From the NCBI GenBank assembly GCA_947646585.1, contig CANSHD010000001.1:313210-377209 (forward strand): a stretch of DNA of 64,000 bases. The letters run 5' to 3'. The translations under genes and the position numbers were made by a program. The stretch's first letter is position 1; the number at the start of each line of letters is the position of its first letter. Shown in pieces: positions 7,751 to 56,269 of this stretch. Origin of the DNA: an uncultured Alphaproteobacteria bacterium. GTDB lineage: Bacteria; Pseudomonadota; Alphaproteobacteria; Rs-D84. The notes under the pieces were generated by a model, which was not told the DNA's origin, did not search any database, and saw only the letters and a program-made list of their open reading frames with translations.

Positions 7751-9035
7751 CGGGCCGTCCGAATGTGGTGGCATGCTGGTTGAATTGATGCTCAGCGTTG
7801 CGCTGGCCATGATTGTGATACCGTTTATTTTCAGATATCATCAGCGCGCCGTCCGGCGTGCCGAAAATATCGCCGTTTCCCGCCAGATGGAGGGGGTGCA
7901 AAGCGCACTGGAACGTTATATTATGGCGCATCGCGACGAATTGCTGGCGCCGGTTGGTAAAAATATAACACGTGTTGCACTGGCGGATTTGGTGCCGTTC
8001 GGCGTGTCCGAGGATTTGGTCGCCACCGCCGGCGACAAATATCAGCTGCGCGTGTTAAAGGCCGCCGATTTCAACAGCCGGGCGACCCTGCAGGGCGTGG
8101 TCGTATTGAATGACGGCGATATCAGTCCGCTGCGCACGCGCGAGATAGTGAACATTGCCGGCGACCGTGTCGGGTTTCTGGATTCGGGGCGCGCATACGG
8201 TGCGTTCGGCACGTGGAACAGTGCGGCGCTGGACTTGGGACTGGGCGACGGGGGCGGCATTGTGGAAACGACGCCCGCCCTGCGCGACAACGCAAAATAT
8301 TTGTGGCGCGTGCCGTCCGCGGATACGGCCGATGCGACGATGCTGTCGGCGCTGTCGCTGGGGGGGCACGATATCGCGTCGGCGTCTTTCTTTAACAGCC
8401 GCAGCGCCCGCTTTGACGAATTGCTGTCCGTGGGTGAAATCGCCGCCGGCAACATTATTTTTCAAAACAGAACATCGATTGATAAAAAGTTGAGTGCCGT
8501 TTCGTCAACCGTGTCGGGTGCACTGTCGTCGGACTCTAAAAACATGGACGTTGCGGGTAAATTTTCATTGGCCGATTTGGGAAAGTTTTCAGGCTTTACC
8601 GTGTCGGACCTGTACGTGACGAACATGACGCTGTCCGGAATCAGCGTCAGTGACACCGGCGATGTCGCGCTGCTTAAGATAAACCAGGCGCTGGACATGA
8701 CGTCGGGGCGCATCGACGCAATGTTTGTGACGGTGGGGTTTGCGGGATCCATAACGCCGCGCCTTGTCGTGCGCAATCGTATCGAAGATTCGATAAACCC
8801 GTCCTATTATTGGGACGCGTCGCACGGCGTGGCGAATTTTTCAGACGTATCCTTTGCGGAATTGTCGCGTATGGCGCCGCTGGCGCTGGCACGTGAAGGG
8901 CGTGGCACCACGGCCGCGCAAATATTCGGCGCGGTTGCGGCAAACAAGAATGCGACGGCGTCCGATTACATGAATGCGATAACGAAAATCCAGGAAGCGG
9001 TTCGTAAAAAATATCGCGCCTTGAATTTGCAATGA
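7719..9035 (+). CDS. Large prepilin-like membrane protein, third paralog.
   Basis: N-terminus 'MKMKLRRTIFNGPSECG|GMLVELMLSVALAMIVIPFIF' with E at +5 and a Pro-Phe pair ending the helix, as in paralogs 1 and 2. The start overlaps the upstream stop. Confidence 0.55.
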   Translation: MKMKLRRTIFNGPSECGGMLVELMLSVALAMIVIPFIFRYHQRAVRRAENIAVSRQMEGVQSALERYIMAHRDELLAPVGKNITRVALADLVPFGVSEDLVATAGDKYQLRVLKAADFNSRATLQGVVVLNDGDISPLRTREIVNIAGDRVGFLDSGRAYGAFGTWNSAALDLGLGDGGGIVETTPALRDNAKYLWRVPSADTADATMLSALSLGGHDIASASFFNSRSARFDELLSVGEIAAGNIIFQNRTSIDKKLSAVSSTVSGALSSDSKNMDVAGKFSLADLGKFSGFTVSDLYVTNMTLSGISVSDTGDVALLKINQALDMTSGRIDAMFVTVGFAGSITPRLVVRNRIEDSINPSYYWDASHGVANFSDVSFAELSRMAPLALAREGRGTTAAQIFGAVAANKNATASDYMNAITKIQEAVRKKYRALNLQ

Positions 9036-27346: not shown

Positions 27347-29260
27347 ATGAAATCTTTTACACACATTTTGTTGGTGGCGCTGATGCTGGGGCCGTGTGGC
27401 GCCGCGTTTGCCGCCGCGCCTTTGTCTGGTACGTTGGGCAGTAATTTAACCGCCTATAATCCGAACGGCGGGGTAATGAACAATAATGAGTGGAATTCCA
27501 TGATGAACAGCCGCAGTGGGTCCGGCACGGCCGCCACGGCGGATTTTGGAAATTGTAATTCTGTAATTCTGCGGTGCGCGTCGCCAAAGTGCGCGAACGG
27601 CGGATGCACATCGATTGAGGTTGCGACACCGATTGTTGCAGGCTGCGTTGCGTCAAACGCCGCATGTAAACAGTATGGCGATGAATTGACCCAGTATATC
27701 GCGGCCCAGCTGGTCGCAAATTCAACGGCGAAAACAAACGCACAGATGGCGGCGGCGCAAAATGCCGCGGCCGAACAAAGCGCCATGCAAATGCAACAGA
27801 TGCAGGCCCAGATGCAGCAGATGCAGGCGGATATGGCCGCACAAAATGCACAGCAGATAGCGCAGCTGCAGTCGGCACTGGAAGAACAGCAGCGCGCGAC
27901 CGAGGCTGCCCGGGCCGAAGCGGCCGCCGCCGCCACCGCGGCGTCAAACGCCGCGCAGTCGTCCGCCACAATGGGTGCAACGGTTTCCGCGGACGCATCT
28001 GCAGCCACCACCACGGCATCGTCCGGTGCAACACCAACAACGGTTATGGAGGGGTTGTCCGAGGCGCAGCGTATCGCCGCCAATGCCGGCGTATCCGCCG
28101 ATATATTGGCCCGCGAACAGGTCGCCGGCCAGATTATGACATCGCTGGAACGGGCCCAGGTCAATTTGAACAAGGCCAAGGCGGCAATGCAGAACGCATT
28201 TTCCTATGCCGGGTGCACAACGTCGGGCGACAATTGTGTCGGGCCAAAGCGCGTGTCTGTTTTCCGCCAAAAGGCGATGGAGTTTTTCGAACCGTATGAC
28301 GCGGTTCTGGACGAATTGTATGACGCACTGGTTACGGCCCAGTCCGTCGGTGTCGATATTACCGATATATATATGATGCTCAACGGCAGCTGTAATGTCT
28401 GGGGCGAGTATCTGTGTAATGGCGGTACGGTGTTGGATGATTCAGGCGCCAGAAATACCGAAAAAGTTTGTAAAACGACGACCGATGCAAATGGCAAGGA
28501 AACCACAACATGTGAATCGGTCACGAAAAGTTCCACGCAGTCCGGCGGGAACATGGTTTGGGCCAAATATGATGAAAACAACTGCCCGATTAACGGCGGA
28601 CAATCGAAAAAGTATGGTTGGTCGCGCGGTTTAAACAGGGAATGTTATCGAGACACAACAATCCCGCCCGAAGATTCAACGGCCTGTACCCTTAACCGTA
28701 CATTGACCGATATGGAAGACGTTCAGCGTAATTTCCTGTTTGCCGAAGCGGGCGATATAGACGAACACGTTCGTATCGGGTGCGCGTCGTCTGCGCTGGA
28801 AAACAGCAAGTTCTTCCGCAACCGCAAAAAGGGCTCCAGCATTGATATTGAGACACTGGAACGCATCGTTTCCCAGGATGCGCCGGCAATGTTCGGTTCC
28901 AACCGATTTGGCGCCTCAAGCGACCCAGCGATTGATGGTCCGAAATACTGTGCGGTCAACGCCACCAGCTATATGGATTTGCAAAAGGCGGCGGCGTTGA
29001 AAAAACTGCCCGCGCGCGTCTGTGTCAGCGACAAGTCGCTGGCCGCGAACCTGTCGGCGAACGGATTGCTGTCCATGTCCGATATTGATGCGATGATAAA
29101 GGCCGGCGGAACCAATACCGGCTCCGGCGTGACGGGTAATAAGGATCCGCAATATTCGGACAAGGAAACTTGCAATAAATGGCAGGGCGAATGGAAAGAT
29201 AGTGCATGCAAATGCGACGGCAAAAAACAATGGTGGAACGGTGTTTGTGTTTTCAGATAA
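27347..29260 (+). CDS. Secreted cysteine-rich protein with a Gln/Met/Ala-rich low-complexity coiled region.
   Basis: Signal peptide 'MKSFTHILLVALMLGPCGAAFA'. 'CNSVILRCASPKCANGGC' module. 'QMQQMQAQMQQMQADMAAQNAQQIAQLQ' tract. Many Cys in the C-terminal half. Confidence 0.65.
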   Translation: MKSFTHILLVALMLGPCGAAFAAAPLSGTLGSNLTAYNPNGGVMNNNEWNSMMNSRSGSGTAATADFGNCNSVILRCASPKCANGGCTSIEVATPIVAGCVASNAACKQYGDELTQYIAAQLVANSTAKTNAQMAAAQNAAAEQSAMQMQQMQAQMQQMQADMAAQNAQQIAQLQSALEEQQRATEAARAEAAAAATAASNAAQSSATMGATVSADASAATTTASSGATPTTVMEGLSEAQRIAANAGVSADILAREQVAGQIMTSLERAQVNLNKAKAAMQNAFSYAGCTTSGDNCVGPKRVSVFRQKAMEFFEPYDAVLDELYDALVTAQSVGVDITDIYMMLNGSCNVWGEYLCNGGTVLDDSGARNTEKVCKTTTDANGKETTTCESVTKSSTQSGGNMVWAKYDENNCPINGGQSKKYGWSRGLNRECYRDTTIPPEDSTACTLNRTLTDMEDVQRNFLFAEAGDIDEHVRIGCASSALENSKFFRNRKKGSSIDIETLERIVSQDAPAMFGSNRFGASSDPAIDGPKYCAVNATSYMDLQKAAALKKLPARVCVSDKSLAANLSANGLLSMSDIDAMIKAGGTNTGSGVTGNKDPQYSDKETCNKWQGEWKDSACKCDGKKQWWNGVCVFR

Positions 29261-30098
29261 ATCAGAAACGGGGATAAGAAAATTACGCATCGCGCGCATT
29301 TTGACGGCGTCGCTGGTCTGTGCCGTGCTGGCCGGCCCGGCGATGGCTGACGACGGCTGCGAGGACGAATCCAACGACCGTATCGCACCGGAACTGGCAT
29401 TGTGCAGTGTGCACGCGTATAATATCGGCATATCCTCAAACCCGGCCGGCGCGGACAAGCAACTGATGAAGGAAATCGTCGCGCTGAAAACCACCGTTAT
29501 CACCCAGCAGATGAACAAACAGTACGAGTATATGGAGGCCATGATTCGCCGCTTTAGAACGCAGTTGGAAAAAGCGGTTTTGACGACCAAGCTTCAGGCG
29601 GCCGGCGCTACGCCGTCATCCACGGACGGTTCTTCCTCGTCCGGCGGGGGGGGCTATGGCGGCTCCGCGGGGGGCAGTGGTGGCGGACGCAGCAACAACG
29701 GCCTTGCCAATGCCGAAGACTGTATGAACTCATATACGAGTTATTCGGATGTGTATCAGTGCCTGTTGCGCAATGTCGCAAAAATATCGTCCGCGGTGAC
29801 GTCGGGCGATTTGGGCGTGGCGCGCCGCCAGCTGGCCGCCGATTTGACAACGTTGGGCAGTTATAACCGCTTGACCATAAGCTGTGGCCAGAATCAACAG
29901 AATTGCAGCGTGAACGTGCCGTGTCAGAACGCATTGTCGGAAAAAGATGCCAACGGTAAAAACACGACTTGCGCAACCGCCAAAAGCAGTGGCGGCCGCC
30001 GTGACGATATAGCCGCGTGTATCGGCCAGATGCGTGCATGTATTGTTGCGAATAACGAGGCTTTGTCGAATAATTCGAACCAGCAGTCGCGCCCGTAA
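29202..30098 (+). CDS. Secreted cysteine-rich protein with a Gly/Ser linker. Start codon uncertain.
   Basis: Signal peptide 'LRIARILTASLVCAVLAGPAMA'. 'SSSGGGGYGGSAGGSGGG' linker. 'CMNSYTSYSDVYQC' module related to the other Cys-rich paralogs. The GTG start overlaps the upstream gene end. Confidence 0.5.
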   Translation: MHANATAKNNGGTVFVFSDKSETGIRKLRIARILTASLVCAVLAGPAMADDGCEDESNDRIAPELALCSVHAYNIGISSNPAGADKQLMKEIVALKTTVITQQMNKQYEYMEAMIRRFRTQLEKAVLTTKLQAAGATPSSTDGSSSSGGGGYGGSAGGSGGGRSNNGLANAEDCMNSYTSYSDVYQCLLRNVAKISSAVTSGDLGVARRQLAADLTTLGSYNRLTISCGQNQQNCSVNVPCQNALSEKDANGKNTTCATAKSSGGRRDDIAACIGQMRACIVANNEALSNNSNQQSRP

Positions 30099-31519: not shown

Positions 31520-31550
31520 AAACAGCCGCCGTATGGCGGTTGTTTTTTAC
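31520..31550. terminator. Bidirectional terminator between the convergent OmpA-like gene and the PLD gene.
   Basis: 'cagccgcc-gtat-ggcggttg' flanked by an A-run and a T-run. Confidence 0.6.
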
Positions 31551-32557
31551 CCCTGATAAAATCCCCACAAATATTTGAACTGATTCGTGAACTCTTTGTT
31601 TTGCTCCGGAAAGAACATACAGTTTTCCGCATTGGACTGTGTCGCGGACGAGGTCCAGTTGTACGAGCCCGTTTCCACATCCCGTTGGTCGAATATCGCG
31701 AATTTATGATGCATTATCTTGTGCTGTTTGTTCAGCACAACCGGAATACCGCCGTCGCGTATGCGCCCGATTAGCGATGCGCGCCCGGCTGCTTGCAATT
31801 TGTCACTGATTACGCGAACGCGCACGCCGCGGCGGTGCGCGGCCAGCAGGCTGTCCACTATTCGGTCGTTTGTAATCGAATATACGGCCACGTCGATTGC
31901 GCGCGATGCCGCGTTTATACCGGCGATAATGTTGTTTTCACAATCGGGTCCCGGGGTAAAATATACCCGCGCCCAAGACTTTTCCGGAATCGCCGGCACG
32001 GGCAGTGCGGCGGAATCAATTTCATAATCGTCTGTTTGCGTATCGCGGGCCGACCACAGGCGCCGCCACCATGACGGCTTTTTATCATCCGCCCGCGTCA
32101 TGCCAAGCACGGAATACAATTCCTGTTCGGACGGACTGTCTTTTTGTATTATCAACAGCAGCAACCTGTCGTCGGCCCCCTTTGCCATTACCAGTATGTC
32201 GCCGGGAACGCCGGAATGCATGACGCTGTTACGGGCGTATTTCAATTCCCCCTTGCCGCGGCCGTTATACGATGGCGGGTAAAAATAATAGTATCTGGCA
32301 AATCCGTCCTCTTCCAGTTTGTCGCCGCCCAAATACACGTAATCCGTAACATAGTCTTTCTTTTCACGACCCAGAATTTCTTCCAGCTCTTTTGTTGCCT
32401 GAATTGTTTTTGCGCCGCTGATTGGCGAATCGCGTCGAACAAATGTCTTAATCGCTATCTGTTGAAATTCCGGCAGCTCTGACAGCTCAAATGCAATGCA
32501 GCACGGTTGAGTTACCAATATAAACAGGAAACCGAATAATAAACCAAATAAACGCAT
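31547..32557 (-). CDS. Secreted phospholipase D / Nuc-like single-HKD domain protein.
   Basis: Signal peptide 'MRLFGLLFGFLFILVTQPCCIAF'. C-terminal 'HHKFAIFD…GSYNWT' fits the HxK(x4)D(x6)GSxN HKD motif. Only one HKD copy, as in Nuc endonucleases. Confidence 0.6.
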   Translation of the reverse strand: MRLFGLLFGFLFILVTQPCCIAFELSELPEFQQIAIKTFVRRDSPISGAKTIQATKELEEILGREKKDYVTDYVYLGGDKLEEDGFARYYYFYPPSYNGRGKGELKYARNSVMHSGVPGDILVMAKGADDRLLLLIIQKDSPSEQELYSVLGMTRADDKKPSWWRRLWSARDTQTDDYEIDSAALPVPAIPEKSWARVYFTPGPDCENNIIAGINAASRAIDVAVYSITNDRIVDSLLAAHRRGVRVRVISDKLQAAGRASLIGRIRDGGIPVVLNKQHKIMHHKFAIFDQRDVETGSYNWTSSATQSNAENCMFFPEQNKEFTNQFKYLWGFYQG

Positions 32558-32608: not shown

Positions 32609-33448
32609 TTATGCCGCGAATTTAAGGAAGCGGTCGTCGTTTGCAATAACGGCATATCGATTGCGAATAAATATGCGGCGATATAAAGGCCGGCCGTTTA
32701 GTATCACGCCTGTTTTTGTCGGTGTAAAATCTTTGTCCATCCCCAGTACTTCAAATTTATCGGAATCGTAATCCAGCAAAAAAGTAACGGGCACCCCCAT
32801 TATCCCCGTATAGTCCGTCGGAATTTCTTTTATTTTGTTAACATTTATCGCATCGGCGTTGTCGTATTTTGGATAATGTGCCGCATGCCCGTAATATTGA
32901 CTGTGCGGAGCGCGGGCATCCCTTTTGCGATTTGTCGTCAGATTTGTGAACCAGCATATGTTGCCAAACTTTTTTAAGCGCCCGTCGGGCTGGATAAAGG
33001 CTCTTGGGTACGTGCACCCGGTGCGCACCTTGTTGGCGCGTATCAAAGAAAATGTCTGTTCATATGCGACGGCGTTCATGTTTCCGATAATCAAAAAATG
33101 CTTATCGTGCGCGGCCAGCAGGCCCATAAACTCCCGAAACAAGGAAAAAGGCGGATTTGTGACAATGACGTCCGCCCGTTTCAGCAATTCAACCGATGCC
33201 GCACTGCGAAAGTCATCCCCACCCAGGCCACCGCTGAAACACACATCACGTATTTGGCCGGCGGCCTTTAATTCCGTAAAGTATTTCACAAACGCACTGT
33301 CCGCGGTGTCACAGTTGCAATAAATGGTCTTATTAAAAAAATGCGACAGGTAATTGTCGCATTCTTTCCGTACATCCTCGTAACGCGTATAAAATTCGTC
33401 GTTTTTGACCGCGCGGGCACGGTGCAGGTTTGCGCTTTTTGATGACAT
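32609..33448 (-). CDS. N6-adenine DNA methyltransferase of the EcoRI-methylase family.
   Basis: 'KNDEFYTRYEDV', 'IYCNCD', 'IVTNPPFSLFREF' (NPPF motif IV), 'FLIIGNMNAVAYEQTF', 'WFTNL', 'YPKYDNADAINVNKIKEIP' and 'GIMGVPVTFL' recall M.EcoRI blocks. SD ggagagagg precedes the ATG. Confidence 0.65.
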   Translation of the reverse strand: MSSKSANLHRARAVKNDEFYTRYEDVRKECDNYLSHFFNKTIYCNCDTADSAFVKYFTELKAAGQIRDVCFSGGLGGDDFRSAASVELLKRADVIVTNPPFSLFREFMGLLAAHDKHFLIIGNMNAVAYEQTFSLIRANKVRTGCTYPRAFIQPDGRLKKFGNICWFTNLTTNRKRDARAPHSQYYGHAAHYPKYDNADAINVNKIKEIPTDYTGIMGVPVTFLLDYDSDKFEVLGMDKDFTPTKTGVILNGRPLYRRIFIRNRYAVIANDDRFLKFAA

Positions 33449-33600
33449 GGTGCCTCTCTCCTGTTTTAATAAAAAAAGCCCCGCAAATGCGGGGGAAATA
33501 AAAAAACGGACAGATTTCTCTGTCCGCACATATGAATACTATATCAAAAATCGCCCCAAAAAGCAATATAAAACGCCCCGTTCGGGGCGTTTAGGCATTT

Positions 33601-34947
33601 TTACGGGCACTGGGCCAGCTGATTTAACACATTTTGTACGTCTGTGTTAATGGATACTGTTATCTCGCGCTGCAGGCCGTCTATATATGTATAGTCGAAT
33701 TTGGACGCGGCAAATTCCGGCGCGGCCGCATATGCGTCGCGGAACGGGGCCAGCATCGCCGTAAACCACTGGCGCCCGCGGCACAGACATCCGTTTCGAA
33801 CGTCCGCCGCAACGGCCGCGGTGGCGGTGTTGGGATATTTTGCGTCAAATTCAGCGTCCGTCATCATCAGACAGCGGTTGCCCAAACCGTAAAAGTTCGC
33901 GTCATCGGCCAGGAATTTGTAAACCAAGCCGTCGGATGCGCCGGCTTTCTTTAAAGAATACGCCATTCCGTCGGTACAGCACGCCTGGGCGCTGCGCATC
34001 AGCATCTTGTATCTGTCCAGCAGCGGCGCCGCCGTCGGGTCGGTTGCGGTAATGTTTTTGTTGCATTTCGCCTTTACGATAAACGCATCCAGCAATTCCG
34101 GGCGCAATTTATTGCTTCGCGGGGCGACCGTTTCGCGAACCATGGGCTTGCGCCGCCATATTTCGCATTCCGTTTCAGAATCAAACGGGCATCCGTCGCC
34201 ACCAAAGGCAATCGCGATTACGTTCGTCATGTCCTGGGCCACGTATTCGGGTTTTGGCGCCGGCATGTTCATGTTGTTCACGACCAGCGTGTCCGTCCAC
34301 AGGTTCTCGGCCGGCTTTTGCGGGGCCAATAATTCTTCAACACGCGCGCGCGTTGTGGCCGCGTCGGCCATGTTTTGATTATACAGCTCTATCACATCCA
34401 CCGATTCGGATGTCACCGCCGGTACTGTGCCGTATTGGGCAAAGACCGATTCGGCCGGGCTGTCAATCTCGCGCAGGTAAATTTCCGGCGCCGGTTCCAG
34501 ATACCAGTCGCTGAAATCCTTTTTCTTGTAATTTACAATCGAATCGTCCCAAATCGGCACGCCGTCGCGCCAATCGACCGTTTTGTCGTATCCGCGGGCC
34601 TTGTAATTGCCGTTTGTTCCGTCATACAAGGCGGGGCGGGTGTCTTCCGGCACCGGCTTTATGCTTAATGTCTTTATATTGCGCATCGGCACCGCGCCCG
34701 CATATATATATTGCGGTCGGGCCGCGTATGCCGGCACCGCCGGTACGGTGTTCATAACCGGGGCCGCAGGCTGGACGGCCGTAACGGTCGTCGTTTCCTC
34801 TATCACGCCCAGAACCGTCGGCTCCGCCGTGGCCGGTGCAATATCACAACCGGCGCCGACACATTCCGAGCCGTGCGCCATCGTCACCGGACACATCAGC
34901 GCCAGGGACGTCAAAATAACAAGTCTTCCTTTCATAATACGAATCAT
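33601..34947 (-). CDS. Secreted cysteine-rich hypothetical protein.
   Basis: Signal peptide 'MIRIMKGRLVILTSLALMCPVTMA'. More than 12 Cys, including 'CTDGMAYS', 'CLCRGRQW' and a C-terminal 'AQCP'. Confidence 0.5.
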   Translation of the reverse strand: MIRIMKGRLVILTSLALMCPVTMAHGSECVGAGCDIAPATAEPTVLGVIEETTTVTAVQPAAPVMNTVPAVPAYAARPQYIYAGAVPMRNIKTLSIKPVPEDTRPALYDGTNGNYKARGYDKTVDWRDGVPIWDDSIVNYKKKDFSDWYLEPAPEIYLREIDSPAESVFAQYGTVPAVTSESVDVIELYNQNMADAATTRARVEELLAPQKPAENLWTDTLVVNNMNMPAPKPEYVAQDMTNVIAIAFGGDGCPFDSETECEIWRRKPMVRETVAPRSNKLRPELLDAFIVKAKCNKNITATDPTAAPLLDRYKMLMRSAQACCTDGMAYSLKKAGASDGLVYKFLADDANFYGLGNRCLMMTDAEFDAKYPNTATAAVAADVRNGCLCRGRQWFTAMLAPFRDAYAAAPEFAASKFDYTYIDGLQREITVSINTDVQNVLNQLAQCP

Positions 34948-35206
34948 ATCACAAAAACAGGCCTTTTTAAAACATAAAAATGCCAAAAATACGAATCGAA
35001 TGACCGAATCATGCATATTTTTGACGTTCGGGCCCCGCCTCAGAATCGGTTTTTACCCCGAATCCGAATCAATTTTCGCGAAAAAAGCCCCCGGCCAAAA
35101 AATTTTTCAAAAAAAATCATCAGGTAAAAAATCCCGGATTTCCGGCGATTTTTCCTAAAAGATGGGCCTGCCCAAAATTTTTTTGAAATTATTTTTGAAA
35201 TTGCGC

Positions 35207-35235: not shown

Positions 35236-35553
35236 GTGCGGGCTCTCAAGTTGAGATGAAACGAAAAAAGAAATCTCAACCTCTAGGAAATTCGGCGGTT
35301 CGCAGGTAATTCTGAGGGAATCGCAACATTGTGAATAAAAGCAGCTCATCAAAAATTCAAGAAGGGATGTGCAGACAGTTGAATTTGGAAATATCCAAAC
35401 TTTGACTAAGTCAAATGTGCATATCCTAGACAGGTAGTAGGTTTACATATTAAACCTCGTTAAAAACTTGTCTTGCGAATAAATATATGTAAAGACGAAC
35501 TGATATTATGTCAGTGTTGTTTATGCACAGGACTTAAACCACAAGTTTTTTAG

Positions 35554-37054
<1,501 letters not shown>

Positions 37055-37138
37055 ATAGAGAATACCGTTTCCACGAAAACGGTCAAATCCAAAGCGACTG
37101 TCTGAACATCTCTTTTTGAAAATGGGTATAATTCTGCT

Positions 37139-37215
37139 GGGTCAGTAGTTCAGTTGGTTAGAATGCCGCTCTGATACAGCGGAGGTCGAAGATTCGAGTT
37201 CTTCCTGACCCACCA
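37139..37215 (+). tRNA. tRNA-Ile (anticodon GAT) in the 16S-23S spacer.
   Basis: Acceptor GGGTCAG/CTGACCC. Anticodon stem CCGCT/AGCGG, loop CTGATAC. T-loop TTCGAGT. CCA encoded. Confidence 0.9.
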
Positions 37216-37521
37216 CTTAAATTGATGAGGTTGGAATCAAAAACAAATACTTGTTTTTGATTCCAGATGTTCTGATGAATATCTTCGGAATCTGCTTTTA
37301 TTAGCAATCATTGTAAATCGGTTTTTAATGTCGTAAATCAAACTTTATGGAAACATGACTTTTGATTTATTGAACATCGTAATCTCAAAAATCTTTCTAA
37401 ATAGAGTAATCACGAAAGTGATAATTCAATTAGAGAAGCAAGAATCAACTTAAATGCTTAAAAAACTCATTAAGTTCTTTTGATTGTGTTTGAAGACTTT
37501 CTCTTCAAGCATAAGATAAAA

Positions 37522-40258
<2,737 letters not shown>

Positions 40259-40354
40259 TTTTTATCTTATCGTTTGACTTATGTCAGACGATTGCTTGAA
40301 GAGAACGTTGACATTGATTCTTGAATCATGTATTATGATGTTCGCTGGATTTAT

Positions 40355-40470
40355 TCTGGTGATTATTGAGCGGGAGCCACCCTCTGTTCCATTCCGAACC
40401 AGACAGGGAAACCCCGTATCGCCGATGGTACTTTGGCTTAAGCCACGGAAGAGTAGGTCGTCGCCAGAGT
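40355..40470 (+). rRNA. rrf: 5S ribosomal RNA.
   Basis: '…CCATTCCGAACCAGACAGG…CGCCGATGGTACTTTGGCTTAAGCCACGGAAGAGTAGGTCGTCGCCAGA'. Terminal helix TCTGGTGA/TCGCCAGA. Confidence 0.85.
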
Positions 40471-40504
40471 AAATCCAGTTTCCGATATTAAAAACCGATT
40501 CCAC

Positions 40505-40532
40505 CGCCCATTGGGCGGTTTTTTGTTTTAGG
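40505..40532 (+). terminator. rrn operon terminator.
   Basis: 'accgccc-attg-ggcggt' followed by T6. Confidence 0.75.
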
Positions 40533-40562
40533 ATTTTCAAAATTTATGATATAATGTAAATC

Positions 40563-41122
40563 ATGGTAAAAAGTCTTTATATTATCGCGGGTCCAAATGG
40601 TTCTGGTAAAACCACATTGGCAAAAGAGCTGGTAAAGGAAGATAATATTGCATTCTTAAACGCAGATGAAATAGCAAAGAAAAAAGGAGATGCAATCGGC
40701 ATTGCTGCCGGTCGTTTGCTATTGGATAAGCTAGATTCTTTATTGGAGGAAGGTAAATCTATTATTTGGGAATCTACGGTTTCAGGTAATTTTCATACAA
40801 AAATCATAGAACGTGCGAAAAAGTCAAAATATGAAATAGTATTTATATCTTTTTAGATTCTGTTGAGCAAAATATTATGCGTATAGAACAGCGGGTCGCA
40901 TTGGGTGGGCATACCGTTCCTGAATGTGATGTGCGTCGCAGATATAATCGCAGTTTAAATAACTTTAAAGATATCATTCCAAATGTTTCTCATTGGGAAC
41001 TGTATTATAATGGTGGCAATAATTATATTTTAATAGCTCGTGGCAAGGGAGATTTTATTGACATTATTAATGAACAAGTCTATCATAATTTTGTAAAAAG
41101 GCTAAAAAATGACAAAAAGTGA
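40563..41122 (+). pseudogene. Zeta-toxin / AAA-family P-loop ATPase gene disrupted by a 1-nt frameshift in a T5 homopolymer at 40850–40854.
   Basis: ORF1 'MVKSLYIIAGPNGSGKTTLAKEL…KYEIVFISF*'. With one extra T the frame continues as 'FLDSVEQNIMRIEQRVALGGHTVPECDVRRRYNRSLNNF…', which is the typical family C-terminus. The region is AT-rich. Confidence 0.65.
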
Positions 41123-41252
41123 TTATGAATTATCTGCAAAAATATCACGTTTGGCTAATCGCGGCGCATACAAGGCGCGTGAAAAAGCGCGCCGAGCGGG
41201 CGTGCCTGTTGCATATGCGTTTGATGGAAAAATATTTGAGGTTTGTCTGTAA
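41109..41252 (+). CDS. Small ORF of 47 aa, overlapping the ATPase 3' end and followed by a strong terminator. Possible cognate partner of the ATPase.
   Basis: 'MTKSDYELSAKISRLANRGAYKAREKARRAGVPVAYAFDGKIFEVCL'. Ends directly at the hairpin 'acgcccaatgggcgg' followed by T6. Confidence 0.35.
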   Translation: MTKSDYELSAKISRLANRGAYKAREKARRAGVPVAYAFDGKIFEVCL

Positions 41253-41286
41253 TAAAAAAACGCCCAATGGGCGGTTTTTTAATTTG
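41253..41286 (+). terminator. Rho-independent terminator.
   Basis: 'aaaaaaacgcccaatgggcggttttttaattt'. Confidence 0.75.
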
Positions 41287-41305
41287 TCGCGTGGAGTGAT
41301 TGATA

Positions 41306-41541
41306 TGTTAAAACAGATATTAAATTTCGAAAATGGTTTCGGTGATGTTGTCATATTGAAAGAGACCGCTGGCTTTACCGTTAAATATTCGCTTAAGAAA
41401 TGCCCGGGCGTATATCATTGCCGTGTAAATAATACGGTGGATTATGACAAGGCCGTAAAGCACTTTAACCGCTATCGTGGCATATTAAAGCGTCGCGAGA
41501 CCATCAGCCGCACGCGGGGGAAACAATCGTGCCGGATATAA
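41306..41541 (+). CDS. Hypothetical small protein, 78 aa.
   Basis: ATG-initiated ORF 'MLKQILNFENGFGDVVILKETAGFTVKYSLKKCPGVYHCRVNN…' in an AT-rich context. Confidence 0.3.
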
Positions 41542-41768
41542 TCACAAACGTAGATATGCTGTACACCACCCCCATGGGAACGATGCGGATACGTCGTAAT
41601 CTTGGTATAGATGTCGACAACGTGGTTGAATATTGCCGTGCGCGCATACTGTCGCCGGAATCCGCAATAGAACGCCGTGGTAAAAATTGGTATATATTGT
41701 TGCCGGATTGCACGATTACGGTTAATGCGTCGTCTTGCACAATCATTACGGCGCACAAAGTCCGTTGA
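41529..41768 (+). CDS. DUF3781-like small protein.
   Basis: '…LYTTPMGTMRIRRNLGIDVDNVVEYC…RRGKNWYILLPDCTITVNASSCTIITAHK' resembles the DUF3781 signature (GKNWY…ITVNAxSYTIITAH). Confidence 0.45.
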   Translation: MPDIITNVDMLYTTPMGTMRIRRNLGIDVDNVVEYCRARILSPESAIERRGKNWYILLPDCTITVNASSCTIITAHKVR

Positions 41769-41847
41769 CCAATTATTTTATTGCAATCTATGTAATCTGT
41801 AATACACTTTGGGGCCAGAGAGGGAATGCAACAAAAGGTAAGTTGTT

Positions 41848-42258
41848 ATGAAAAAGATATTCCTTGTCTCTGTTATTTCCATTTTTTGTGCGGGCGTCGC
41901 GTTGGCGTCGGATATGCTGCCGGCGGGCGGTTATTATGAAACCGAAAGCGCCGATTGCGACATGAATGCAATGCGTGCCGAATTGGACCGTGCCACGGCC
42001 GCGCGTCGTGCGGTGATTACGGTTGTGCGCTGTGCGCCGCGTGCGACGGACCGTGATATGGCCCGGGACGCGTCCTATGACGCGGAATATGCGGCGTTTG
42101 ATGATGGTTGCACCGATTGCGCCGCCCCGATAGAGCGCGTGATAGACCGCCGCGTATATGTGGAGGAAACGGTTCAGCAGTATCGTCCGGTTCTGCACTA
42201 TGTTCCGGCCGGAACATATTCGCGCACACGCCAAATATGCAACGAATGCGATATGTAA
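41848..42258 (+). CDS. Small secreted Cys-containing hypothetical protein.
   Basis: Signal peptide 'MKKIFLVSVISIFCAGVALA'. Six Cys including a C-terminal 'CNECDM'. Confidence 0.45.
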   Translation: MKKIFLVSVISIFCAGVALASDMLPAGGYYETESADCDMNAMRAELDRATAARRAVITVVRCAPRATDRDMARDASYDAEYAAFDDGCTDCAAPIERVIDRRVYVEETVQQYRPVLHYVPAGTYSRTRQICNECDM

Positions 42259-42392
42259 AAAGTCTTGCCAAACCGGCGCAAAAGCGATAAACTTTGTATA
42301 TAAACATATGCCTAATAAAAACCACCGATAAAAGCGGTGGTTTTTAATTTATAAAAAATATTGGTTTTCTGCATTTTTTTATTCTCTCCGGT

Positions 42393-42938
42393 GTGCCTAA
42401 GGAAAACGGTCCTTTTTTTGCAGCGCTGTTTTGCGCATGTTCCGCCAACGCGGGGACAGTATGTGCCGATTGTTACAAGTGTGTTTCCGGAACCGCTGAC
42501 AATTGTTATAAATGTGAATATGATAAAAACTATTGTATGGGTATCGATGAACCGATTGTAGAATGCGCGGGAAATGCAAAGTGGGACAGCACACAACGCA
42601 AATGTGTCTGTCCCAATACTATTGCGGCGATTTGTAGTAATCCGTGGGGGTTTTTCGATAGTTCCGACAATGTGTGTGATTGTGCCCAGGTGGCGTGTAT
42701 ATCAGGAAAATATCCCGTGTCGGCCAATACATGCAAAGATTGCCCGTTGCCGGATTTCACATTGTCGTCCTGTAGCATTCAAAGCAGCGTTGATTATGCG
42801 ACGGATATGGAAATGAAAGTCGGCGGATACAACGGCTGTTATATCCCCGGGGGCTGTGTGGCAACAGACGATACCGGTACGTTCGAACTGATTGCGGACT
42901 GCAAGTACAGCACGGCGCTGGAAGTTGAGTTTAATTAA
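42393..42938 (+). CDS. Small cysteine-rich hypothetical protein of about 180 aa with 22 Cys. Start uncertain (GTG).
   Basis: 'CADCYKCVSGTADNCYKCEYDKNYC…CVCPNTIAAICSNPWGFFDSSDNVCDCAQVACISGKYPVSANTCKDCPLPDF…'. Confidence 0.4.
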   Translation: MPKENGPFFAALFCACSANAGTVCADCYKCVSGTADNCYKCEYDKNYCMGIDEPIVECAGNAKWDSTQRKCVCPNTIAAICSNPWGFFDSSDNVCDCAQVACISGKYPVSANTCKDCPLPDFTLSSCSIQSSVDYATDMEMKVGGYNGCYIPGGCVATDDTGTFELIADCKYSTALEVEFN

Positions 42939-54209: not shown

Positions 54210-55547
54210 ATGCGGCGAATTACAGTTTCTGTTTTGTCGATTTTCATTGCATTGCCGGCATTGGGGGGATCGCGTCTGCCTGTTGTTAACATTGGGGCGG
54301 CGGGGGTTTCCGCACGTGCCGCATTCGGCGAGGATGTAACCCTTAAAACGGCCAAGGTGACCGCCGCACGGTCGGAAAATACGCCGGCCGTCACGGTTGC
54401 GCCCGCACCGAAAAAGACGGTTGTCGCACGCAATGCAAAAAAAGCGGCCCCTGTGAAACAGGCGGCGGCGCCGTCGGTTGATAGCGGCCAGAAAATTGCC
54501 GCGGCTGATGTCTTGGTTCCGCACCGCCCCAGTTCCGATTTGTGGGCAAAAACGGATAGCCCGCTGCGCATGCCGACAAAAGATGAGATTTCTGTCGTGC
54601 GCGCCGATTATGATTTGCCCGAAGAAAGTTTGGATGCCGCGCCGCGCCGCGCCATGATTGCCAGTGCGGATACGTCCGCGCCGCGTACGGGCGCCCTGGA
54701 CGCAGAGATAGAGCGTCTGGTTGAACTGCAGCGTCGTGCGGATGCGTCGGTCGAGGCGCCAAAGGTTGCGTCGCGCGCCGCGTCGTCGTCGCGTGTTATT
54801 GCGGCGCCCATTGCGGATGAGGTTCCGGAAAAGACCGCAGCCGTTAAATCACGCCCGGCCAAATCGCCGGTTGTCGCGGACGATGCGGACACGCGTGTTG
54901 CAACGCGCCGCATGGTTGTCCCGATGCAGGACGACGTGATTGTTCGTGCGGTTGAAAAGACCGCATCGCCACGCATTGCGGCGGTGCGCGACGACATGAC
55001 GTCTTTGTCGCCGTCCGAACTGCGCAAGGCGTTCCGTAAAACCTATTTGTCGGAAAACAAGCATTTATCCACATATCAGATTGACGACCGTTTTGATGTC
55101 GCCAGCGACATGACATCATCGATAGAAGGGTTTACCGCAAAGCGCGATTTGTCAGAGGCCGGCGGTGTTCGCCCGTTGGAAATCAAGATAAAGTTCCGCG
55201 GCGATGATTCGGCCCTGTCGCGTGACAATTATAATTTGTTGACGGAGTATGCCGGCATCGTGGTCAGCAATCCAAAGCGCGCGATTCAGGTATCCATCCC
55301 CCAGCGTGCCACAACAAACATGACCGACCGCAAACTGGCGGCGCGCCGTCTGGCGATTGTGGAACAGGTCCTGCGTGATACCGGCGTGTCTGAGCAGCGT
55401 ATCATGCCCGTATTGTCGCAGCGTGACGAGGAGGGATTTGTTCTGCGCATTATCTCCAGCGACCAGTACGAAACATTAAGCAAGCAAAAGCGCGATATGT
55501 TCGGTGACACTATCAACAAGAAAACATACACCAGCATGTCTTGGTAA
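54210..55547 (+). CDS. Secreted Ala/Pro/Val-rich hypothetical protein with a possible C-terminal OmpA-like fold.
   Basis: Signal peptide 'MRRITVSVLSIFIALPALGGS'. Low-complexity central region. C-terminal 'NMTDRKLAARRLAIVEQVLRDTGVSEQRI' weakly resembles OmpA_C. Confidence 0.35.
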   Translation: MRRITVSVLSIFIALPALGGSRLPVVNIGAAGVSARAAFGEDVTLKTAKVTAARSENTPAVTVAPAPKKTVVARNAKKAAPVKQAAAPSVDSGQKIAAADVLVPHRPSSDLWAKTDSPLRMPTKDEISVVRADYDLPEESLDAAPRRAMIASADTSAPRTGALDAEIERLVELQRRADASVEAPKVASRAASSSRVIAAPIADEVPEKTAAVKSRPAKSPVVADDADTRVATRRMVVPMQDDVIVRAVEKTASPRIAAVRDDMTSLSPSELRKAFRKTYLSENKHLSTYQIDDRFDVASDMTSSIEGFTAKRDLSEAGGVRPLEIKIKFRGDDSALSRDNYNLLTEYAGIVVSNPKRAIQVSIPQRATTNMTDRKLAARRLAIVEQVLRDTGVSEQRIMPVLSQRDEEGFVLRIISSDQYETLSKQKRDMFGDTINKKTYTSMSW

Positions 55548-56269
55548 TCATGATTGCCCGCGGCATAGAAAAGATTATTGAGTTTTTATTCCCTCCGGCG
55601 TGTCCTGTATGTGGCGCGCCGGTGTCTTTACACGGTGAACTGTGCGCCGATTGTTTCGGATGTTTTGAATGGATAGATTCGCCAAAGTGTTCGCGTTGCG
55701 GTTATCCGATGGTGTTTGCGCCCAATGGTGCGGCCGTTTGTCCGGCGTGCGCGCGTGATGAGTTCGGTCTGGAATGGCTGCGCAGTGCGTGCCGCTATGA
55801 CGAAATGTCGCGCAGTGTGATGCTGTCGTTTAAACACGGGGGACGGATAAAGTATGCGCGTTTTATGGCGCGTGCAATGATATGGGCGCTGCGCGACGTG
55901 CCGGCGGATTGTGATATTGTAATGCCGGTTCCGTTGGCGCGTCCGCGTTTGATTCACAGAACGTACAACCAGGCGACGCTGCTGGCGCGGCCCATTGCGC
56001 ATGCGATGAACGTACCGCTGGACGTTGACAGTGTCCGTCGCCGTCATCGCCCCGACATGGGTCACATGACCCCGCGCCAGCGAAAAGAAAACATACGCGG
56101 CGTGTTCACGGTTGCGCGTCCGGACCGCGTACGGGGACGTAAAATATTGCTGGTTGACGATGTGTATACGAGTGGCGCTACATTGTCGGAACTGCGCCGC
56201 GTATTGCTGCGCGCCGGGGCGAAATCCGTATGCGGGGTCACGTTCTGCCGCGTTGTCCGCACGGTATAG
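55541..56269 (+). CDS. comF: ComF-family protein (double zinc ribbon plus phosphoribosyltransferase domain).
   Basis: 'CPVCGAPV…CADCFGCF…CSRCGYPM…CPAC' Cys clusters. PRTase motif 'ILLVDDVYTSGATL'. Confidence 0.7.
   Translation: MVIMIARGIEKIIEFLFPPACPVCGAPVSLHGELCADCFGCFEWIDSPKCSRCGYPMVFAPNGAAVCPACARDEFGLEWLRSACRYDEMSRSVMLSFKHGGRIKYARFMARAMIWALRDVPADCDIVMPVPLARPRLIHRTYNQATLLARPIAHAMNVPLDVDSVRRRHRPDMGHMTPRQRKENIRGVFTVARPDRVRGRKILLVDDVYTSGATLSELRRVLLRAGAKSVCGVTFCRVVRTV

Follow-up and report, generated by a model that had tools for sequence, protein, structure and literature searches.

The stretch of DNA analysed here (the window; 64,000 nucleotides of contig CANSHD010000001.1, positions 313,210 to 377,209, from an uncultured bacterium of the alphaproteobacterial lineage Rs-D84) carries on its minus strand a gene for an EcoRI-family N6-adenine DNA methyltransferase (the methylase), followed by a gene for a protein with a phospholipase D (PLD)-type nuclease domain. 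The PLD nuclease is a conserved partner of the methylase, which is not an orphan. On balance, the evidence leans towards a two-gene module akin to a restriction-modification (RM) system, in which an active cytoplasmic methylase is paired with an exported nuclease that cuts unmarked DNA and is composed of a B3-like recognition domain and a PLD catalytic domain (B3-PLD). The module would represent an RM system with a BfiI-type nuclease that is exported, a variant that we did not find described; full-text searches of the accessible literature turned up nothing relevant on restriction enzymes that are exported, periplasmic or secreted and linked to a methyltransferase.

The methylase and its partner nuclease

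The methylase is encoded by an uninterrupted open reading frame (ORF; 32609-33448, minus strand) that starts with ATG and specifies 279 aa. In a profile search, it matched Pfam PF13651 (EcoRI_methylase) with 239 bits (E 9.3e-71; cutoff 26.4 bits), and the type II methyltransferase model of PADLOC (MTase_II) matched it with E 1.7e-72. BLASTP alignment with authentic M.EcoRI, taken from E. coli plasmid pU90-3 (L006), where R.EcoRI is annotated beside it, gave 37% identity over the full length (E 3e-66), which bears out the family assignment made in an earlier reading of the letters without database searches (the sequence-only reading). The sequence blocks quoted there are all present in the methylase (NDEFYT, YCNCD, VTNPPFSLFREF, FLIIGN, WFTNL, YPKYDNADAINV and MGVP.TF), and most do not vary among 36 aligned relatives, in which NDEFYT, CNCD (residues 44-47), DFR and NPPFSLF are conserved throughout. 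The catalytic (N/D)PP(F/Y) motif and the motifs of the S-adenosylmethionine region were intact. As in the EcoRI system, whose methyltransferase belongs to the same family, NDEFYT, YCNCD and NPPF follow each other in the same order, whereas two insertions of M.EcoRI (~45 aa and ~15 aa) are missing and a C-terminal tail resembling an SsrA tag is present. No NCBIfam model matched the methylase, and a PDB sequence search returned no relative. An alternative GTG at 33529 would lengthen the ORF by a stretch that contains two terminator-like hairpins and an AGGAG ribosome-binding site; public orthologues are all called at 279 aa, and a protein identical to the methylase is already public. The ratio of nonsynonymous to synonymous substitution rates (dN/dS), determined against the 75%-identical orthologue of a sister species, was 0.18, similar to that of neighbouring housekeeping genes. 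The family matches, the invariant motifs, the identical public protein and this dN/dS value show the gene to be real, intact and under selection. Taken alone, the methylase is an ordinary member of a known family.

The sequence-only reading was also correct in placing no EcoRI-like (PD-(D/E)XK) endonuclease nearby and in describing the neighbours as a signal-peptide PLD protein and a signal-peptide Cys-rich protein. With authentic R.EcoRI as the query, tblastn gave no homologue in the window or in close relatives (loci L001-L013); the same search gave a neighbouring match in 10 more distant EcoRI-family loci. Whereas the partner in the EcoRI system is the PD-(D/E)XK enzyme R.EcoRI, the partner in the window is the B3-PLD nuclease. 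A homologue search with this protein yielded a compact family of 320-370-aa proteins, labelled only as "hypothetical" or "phospholipase D". Alignment of 37 members showed a signal-like N-terminus, a domain of ~130 residues (the N-domain), a linker with the motif SxWxRLW, and the PLD domain, in which H283, K285, GSxNWT...N.E, C206 and C313 are invariant and D290 is nearly so (at least 90%). The nuclease gene had a dN/dS of 0.10 when compared with the sister species.

The AlphaFold model of the whole nuclease (predicted local distance difference test, pLDDT, 82) was matched by Foldseek to Nuc of Salmonella (1byr; E 2e-12; template-modelling (TM) score 0.78 on target), with Zucchini and H. pylori NucT (6ehi) as further fold matches of the C-terminal domain. 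This search gave matches to the PLD domain only, and the N-domain was then modelled on its own with AF2 (AlphaFold 2; pLDDT 92.5). Its best 18 PDB fold matches were all B3-type DNA-binding pseudobarrels, including the B3 domains of plant ARF, LEC2 and VRN1, BfiI (2c1l; probability 1.0), the BfiI recognition domain on DNA (3zi5) and the N-terminal domain of LlaJI.R1 (6c5d). Pfam, searched up to E 10, has no model for the N-domain, its EcoRII-N model being unmatched as well, and PADLOC gave only weak DrmC-type PLD matches for the nuclease.

These fold matches and the literature on BfiI, NgoAVII and CglI, whose R-proteins join a PLD nuclease to a B3-like recognition domain (PMC3973309, PMC4267654), indicate that the modelled partner has both domain types of a known restriction-enzyme class (BfiI), in reversed order. 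Like the window nuclease, these enzymes combine a Nuc-like PLD domain with a B3-like pseudobarrel and are encoded beside a methyltransferase. The window nuclease differs from them in having the recognition domain first, a signal peptide and an export-associated Cys pair, and in lacking a helicase/ATPase partner. With its best structural matches, Nuc (pKM101/Salmonella) and NucT (H. pylori), it shares the single HKD motif and the signal peptide; those enzymes, however, are single-domain, non-specific nucleases with neither a recognition domain nor a linked methyltransferase, whereas the window nuclease has an extra B3-like domain of 130 aa and a methylase neighbour.

Linkage across lineages and exchange of the recognition domain

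When 1.84 billion representative proteins were scanned with the N-domain (phmmer), no more than 32 clusters (50% identity) were returned. In 15 of the 16 readable lineages (distinct lineages counted), the N-domain protein directly adjoins a DNA methyltransferase, which belongs to one of three unrelated families (EcoRI-like, N6_N4 or C5) and is found in two gene orders. The B3-PLD nuclease adjoins a methylase in every readable relative of the pair, including those in which the flanking genes differ. The sister species keeps the pair in the same order within 20 kb of conserved synteny (75% identity for the methylase, 80% for the nuclease). The order is also retained in L012 (Ca. Enterousia; 51% and 48%) and L013 (48% and 41%), where the two genes are separated by only 16-17 nt, and the pair is likewise kept in L011 (59% and 51%); the other flanking genes of these three loci are unrelated to those of the window. 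An EcoRI-like methylase adjoins the nuclease in L093/L094, L097-L103 and L180, and also in L179, where the two genes are convergent. Its place is taken by a PF01555 N6_N4 methylase in L091/L092 and L178, and by a PF00145 C5 methylase in L095/L096 and L177. The nuclease family was found in gut Alphaproteobacteria and in Melainabacteria (P0227, Ca. Gastranaerophilus).

In P0229, a metagenomic protein of 420 aa whose cluster contains 64 member sequences, an EcoRI-family methylase (residues 1-245) is naturally fused in frame with a PLD domain. With neither a signal peptide nor an N-domain, this protein may be a module in decay or a single-chain variant that acts in the cytoplasm. Most of the short Nuc-like PLD proteins with a single domain, of which gut metagenomes contain many, have no methylase beside them. 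As a separate observation, a short lipoprotein-type PLD nuclease without an N-domain lies 11 nt after an N6_N4 methylase at L109:216-1827, and some single-domain exported PLD nucleases may also be methylase-linked. Assembly GCA_031550975.1 carries two modules of an N6_N4 methylase and a B3-PLD nuclease: that in L091 is located beside an integrase and a KAP NTPase, and that in L178 has an extra small staphylococcal-nuclease (SNase) gene directly downstream.

The N-domain is also joined to other catalytic domains. P0263, P0269 and P0272 consist of a signal peptide, the N-domain and an SNase domain, and P0269 (L181) is encoded directly after a C5 methylase. In P0282, P0288 and P0289, the N-domain occupies the N-terminal position ahead of an EcoRII-C catalytic domain, an arrangement that links it to EcoRII; unlike the window nuclease, these proteins lack a signal peptide, are cytoplasmic and have a PD-(D/E)XK catalytic domain. 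Since it is fused to SNase with a signal and to EcoRII-C without one, the recognition domain has been passed around among nuclease scaffolds of both the exported and the cytoplasmic kind.

Among members of the PLD family, the N-domain has diverged much more rapidly than the catalytic domain. Between P0186, which has a C5 partner, and P0189, which has an EcoRI-like one, identity amounts to 87% for the PLD domain and to 20% for the N-domain. L095 and L180 represent one chromosomal locus in related genomes, with 88% identity in the upstream 120 nt and 74-75% in the downstream genes. Between L095:5022-6597 and L180:121-1730, the methylase gene (C5 versus EcoRI-like) and the part of the nuclease gene coding for the signal and the N-domain are non-homologous; similarity returns at the boundary of the PLD domain, and conservation covers this domain, the leader and the downstream genes. 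Because similarity is lost across this block, the methylase and the recognition domain have been replaced together as one cassette, as expected if both recognise the same DNA motif.

Predicted export of the nuclease and alternative explanations

A signal-like N-terminus was present in all 37 aligned PLD members: one to three basic residues precede a hydrophobic core 12-18 residues long, and position -1, ahead of a conserved F-E/D, is occupied by Ala or Gly. Its sequence is otherwise variable, and the P0205 subgroup carries an LTGC lipobox. Such an N-terminus is also found on the SNase fusions and is absent from the EcoRII-C fusions of the same N-domain. SNase itself is a secreted nuclease of the classic type. 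Of 80 PLD homologues from metagenomes, all 49 that bear a signal have the Cys pair, which is missing from ~24 without a signal, a co-variation that suggests a periplasmic disulfide. Based on the universal signal-like N-terminus, the signal-less EcoRII-C fusions, the Cys-pair pattern and SNase as the alternative domain, the nuclease is predicted to be exported. Since the organism has an outer membrane, as indicated by genes for LptD, LpxD and an OmpA-like lipoprotein, periplasmic localisation is the minimal prediction.

In the scheme that we favour, the methylase would mark a short motif on the cell's own DNA in the cytoplasm, while the nuclease would be translocated by Sec to the periplasm or beyond and be stabilised by its disulfide. 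In its unmethylated state, this motif would be bound by the N-domain and the DNA cut by the PLD domain, which has a single HKD motif and would act as a dimer, like other single-HKD enzymes, probably independently of metal ions. Unmarked foreign DNA met outside the cytoplasm, such as transforming DNA in natural transformation or extracellular DNA, would be degraded, and marked kin DNA would be spared. We infer both this biological role and the direction of the methylation effect, in which the mark blocks rather than attracts the nuclease.

Several points weigh against this scheme. Export is deduced from sequence features. A disulfide-dependent, Sec-exported nuclease should pose no threat to the chromosome, and a linked methylase would be needed only on the assumption that self or kin DNA is met outside. 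The effect of methylation could run either way, the mark being blocking or required. The B3-fold scores of the N-domain, though consistent, are modest (E 2e-3 to 0.1; TM ~0.45-0.5), and the SNase-type P0272 (L182) is encoded without an adjacent methylase, next to an OLD-type gene and 2.6 kb from a C5 methylase. A ComF-like gene is the only competence-related gene in the window. Finally, GAATTC is not depleted in the window (20 observed versus 27 expected), so that nothing points to the recognition site; in the palindrome statistics, AATT and related words were not notably depleted either, and no candidate site emerged. The GAATTC-like motif that the sequence-only reading had expected was left unsupported by these counts, by the identity to M.EcoRI of only 37% and by the two missing insertions.

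The exported nuclease could instead serve nucleotide scavenging, the remodelling of biofilm DNA or the escape from DNA traps, with the methylase providing self-immunity only, by shielding the chromosome from nuclease molecules that fold too early, ahead of export, or leak back into the cytoplasm. The enzymes closest to it in structure, Nuc and NucT, are exported and do not act in restriction; gut metagenomes commonly encode short signal-peptide PLD nucleases that lack an N-domain; and secreted DNases usually have immunity partners. However, because the short Nuc-like versions mostly lack a methylase neighbour, export alone calls for no methylase; methylation-based immunity would, moreover, need sequence-specific cutting and so merge with the scheme that we favour, and a disulfide-dependent Sec substrate should, judging from the Cys-pair pattern, be inactive in the cytoplasm. 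We regard this explanation as unlikely. Somewhat less likely still is a conventional cytoplasmic type II system of the BfiI kind, in which the hydrophobic N-terminus of the nuclease is no export signal. It would fit the two domain types shared with BfiI, the tight methylase linkage and cassette swapping typical of RM systems, and the strong depletion of GATC in many of these genomes, but it is hard to reconcile with the signal-peptide-shaped, sequence-variable N-terminus of every member (with one lipobox), with an invariant Cys pair confined to signal-bearing PLD homologues, and with a hydrophobic N-terminus that N-domain proteins lack with EcoRII-C and have with SNase; the GATC depletion, in turn, does not follow the cassette type.

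If the N-domain instead read the methylated motif, only self-marked DNA would be bound or processed for uptake, and export would keep the nuclease away from the methylated chromosome, which would explain the need for it. A precedent exists in C. jejuni, which takes up only DNA bearing the CtsM methyl mark, its fate being decided at the first, extracytoplasmic step (PMC8468864); there, DNA without the mark is not taken up and a linked nuclease is not known, and a role of the window module in transformation is put forward as a hypothesis. However, the B3-like domains of BfiI and EcoRII, which have been characterised, recognise sites without modification (PMC3973309), the known readers of modified bases have SRA, EVE or YTH folds, none of which was among the fold matches of the N-domain, and one fold would need to read N6-methyladenine (m6A), N4-methylcytosine (m4C) or m6A, and 5-methylcytosine marks in different cassettes. 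We consider such a methylation-dependent nuclease or receptor very improbable. Equally improbable, or slightly more so, is the proposal of the sequence-only reading that the methylase is an orphan or regulatory enzyme, or the leftover of a lost EcoRI-type system, beside an unrelated secreted PLD protein. The window indeed contains no R.EcoRI homologue, the site is a core chromosomal one beside the rRNA operon and syntenic in the sister species, and an SsrA-like tail could suit a regulated methylase. Yet the census of gene contexts, with methyltransferase adjacency in 15 of the 16 lineages, three families, two gene orders and differing flanks, largely refutes this proposal, as do the methylase-PLD fusion and the joint replacement of methylase and N-domain; purifying selection on both genes argues against a remnant. 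Re-inspection of the neighbourhood has in effect supplied the restriction enzyme that was thought to be missing, in that the PLD protein next to the methylase has the two domain types predicted for a BfiI-like nuclease.

RM is understood as a cytoplasmic defence, and a widespread module whose nuclease bears an export signal would move the discrimination of self from non-self DNA outside the cytoplasm. Such discrimination would bear on the handling of extracellular and transforming DNA by uncultured gut Alphaproteobacteria and Melainabacteria, and on the way in which methyl marks are read when DNA is taken up, for example in C. jejuni. As a broader proposal, which we hold tentatively and which may well prove wrong, the RM system could be split across the envelope, with an exported nuclease made of a B3 domain and a PLD (or SNase) domain destroying DNA that lacks the cell's barcode. 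Transformation, or the use and persistence of extracellular DNA, would then be limited to kin DNA, and the cassettes of methylase and recognition domain that are exchanged between close relatives would act as strain-level barcodes. The "hypothetical PLD proteins" are probably sequence-specific nucleases that work without metal ions and have swappable recognition domains, and would form a small family that has gone unrecognised. The methylases of such modules should not be annotated as orphans.

Expression signals and genomic setting

The features of the module and its surroundings are listed in Table 1. In most module loci, a TTGAT-type -35 element is located ~17 nt upstream of the extended -10 element (TTGAT-N17-TGnTATAAT). 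The near-consensus promoter and the two-hairpin leader recur with differing stems in L008, L011, L012, L097, L098 and L100, and the same leader is found on the C5-type cassettes L177 and L181; because the arrangement recurs across loci, including the C5-type cassettes, the leader belongs to the module. The hairpins were identified by per-sequence folding; RNAalifold found no more than 4 pairs in the MAFFT-aligned leaders, whose stems differ in sequence and were misaligned. In addition, base-pairing is possible between the ribosome-binding site and the U-run that follows hairpin 2. Attenuation and damping of expression are possible roles of the leader.

A tail of the form (A)NDNxxLTxxAA ends the methylase in a subset of relatives (P0002, P0004, P0042, P0057, P0060-63, P0065-66 and the methylase of L093), whereas most others end ~12 residues earlier without it. 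The Caulobacter ssrA tag AANDNFAEEFAVAA occurs in PMC1233412 and PMC9393093. The similarity of the tail to tags added by transfer-messenger RNA (tmRNA) suggests a degron function, with ClpXP-dependent turnover of the methylase. ARAGORN, run on the window and on every retrieved locus, detected no tmRNA. Together, the SsrA-like tail and the two-terminator leader suggest that methylase and nuclease levels are tightly controlled.

Table 1. Positions of the module components, expression signals and rRNA operon in the window
Feature	Coordinates	Strand	Basis
EcoRI-family N6-adenine DNA methyltransferase gene, 279 aa, candidate modification half of the module	32609..33448	-	PF13651, M.EcoRI identity, dN/dS 0.18
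Catalytic NPPF codons (residues 98-101)	33146..33157	-	Invariant in 36 relatives; aligns with NPPF of M.EcoRI
Methylase C-terminal extension ANDDRFLKFAA, tmRNA (SsrA)-tag-like	32612..32644	-	Tail pattern in relatives
Partner gene, predicted exported two-domain nuclease, 336 aa, 51 nt 3' of methylase	31547..32557	-	PF13091 PLDc_2 E 4e-27; methylase-adjacency census; dN/dS 0.10
Signal peptide MRLFGLLFGFLFILVTQPCCIA, predicted cleavage before FEL	32489..32557	-	Signal-peptide shape in all 37 aligned family members
N-domain, residues 24-155, B3-like DNA-binding pseudobarrel, presumed target recognition	32093..32488	-	AF2 model, PDB fold matches, EcoRII-C-fused relatives, divergence
Nuc-type PLD nuclease domain, residues 195-336	31550..31975	-	Foldseek versus Nuc 1byr
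HxKx4D motif HHKFAIFD in PLD domain	31688-31711	-	Sequence
Promoter-like extended -10 element TGATATAGT	33538..33546	-	Upstream of two hairpins; TGnTATAAT nearly invariant across module loci
Leader hairpin 1 (GCGGACAGA-GAAA-TCTGTCCGT) then T-run, terminator-like	33506..33527	-	Position conserved, stems differ
Leader hairpin 2 (CCCCGC-ATTT-GCGGGG) then T-run, terminator-like	33479..33494	-	Position conserved, stems differ
Ribosome-binding site AGGAG, 10-14 nt upstream of ATG	33458..33462	-	Read from sequence
Terminator-like hairpin with T-run directly 3' of nuclease stop	31526..31539	-	Likely operon end
rRNA operon	35553-40469		Recognised among the window genes

The window is part of the core chromosome of a gut alphaproteobacterium close to Candidatus Enterousia, and its NusA and IF2 proteins are 92% and 84% identical, respectively, to those of a Ca. 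Enterousia metagenome-assembled genome. Further products recognised were Der, DnaX, RlmN, LptD, LptF/G, LpxD, MPG glycosylase, PBP1, MraY, FtsW, MurG, the ComF-like protein and GyrA. A Pfam scan of 36 further window ORFs recognised no other methyltransferase or restriction gene. On the minus strand, a gene for a 471-aa Cys-rich signal-peptide protein (33601-35016) is followed by the methylase gene, the 51 nt gap, the gene for the 336-aa PLD protein and the terminator-like hairpin. The 471-aa gene was considered as a third module component and rejected, as it is syntenic in the sister species only. It encodes one of three large proteins that carry signal peptides and have a high content of Cys, Ala and Gln (27347-29260, plus strand; 29202-30098, plus strand; 33601-35016, minus strand), which had no Pfam or NCBIfam match, are kept in the sister species and lie outside the methylase-nuclease module in other lineages. 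The ComF-like protein (55541-56269, plus strand), with a double zinc ribbon and a phosphoribosyltransferase domain, is a weak hint that the organism may possess DNA-uptake machinery. Directly 3' of the 5S rRNA gene, a stretch of low GC content (40500-42400; 0.42-0.43 versus 0.53 for the window) contains only short ORFs, which have no Pfam matches.

GATC is depleted about tenfold in the window (23 observed versus 228 expected; z -13.6). The sites are located at 8746, 12223, 12299, 22169, 29144, 45494, 48580, 51989, 52874, 54268 and 61982, and the remaining 12 of the 23 fall in the rRNA operon (within 35567-39358). The same depletion was observed in related alphaproteobacterial loci and in L091, whatever the cassette type, and is probably separate from the methylase-nuclease module.

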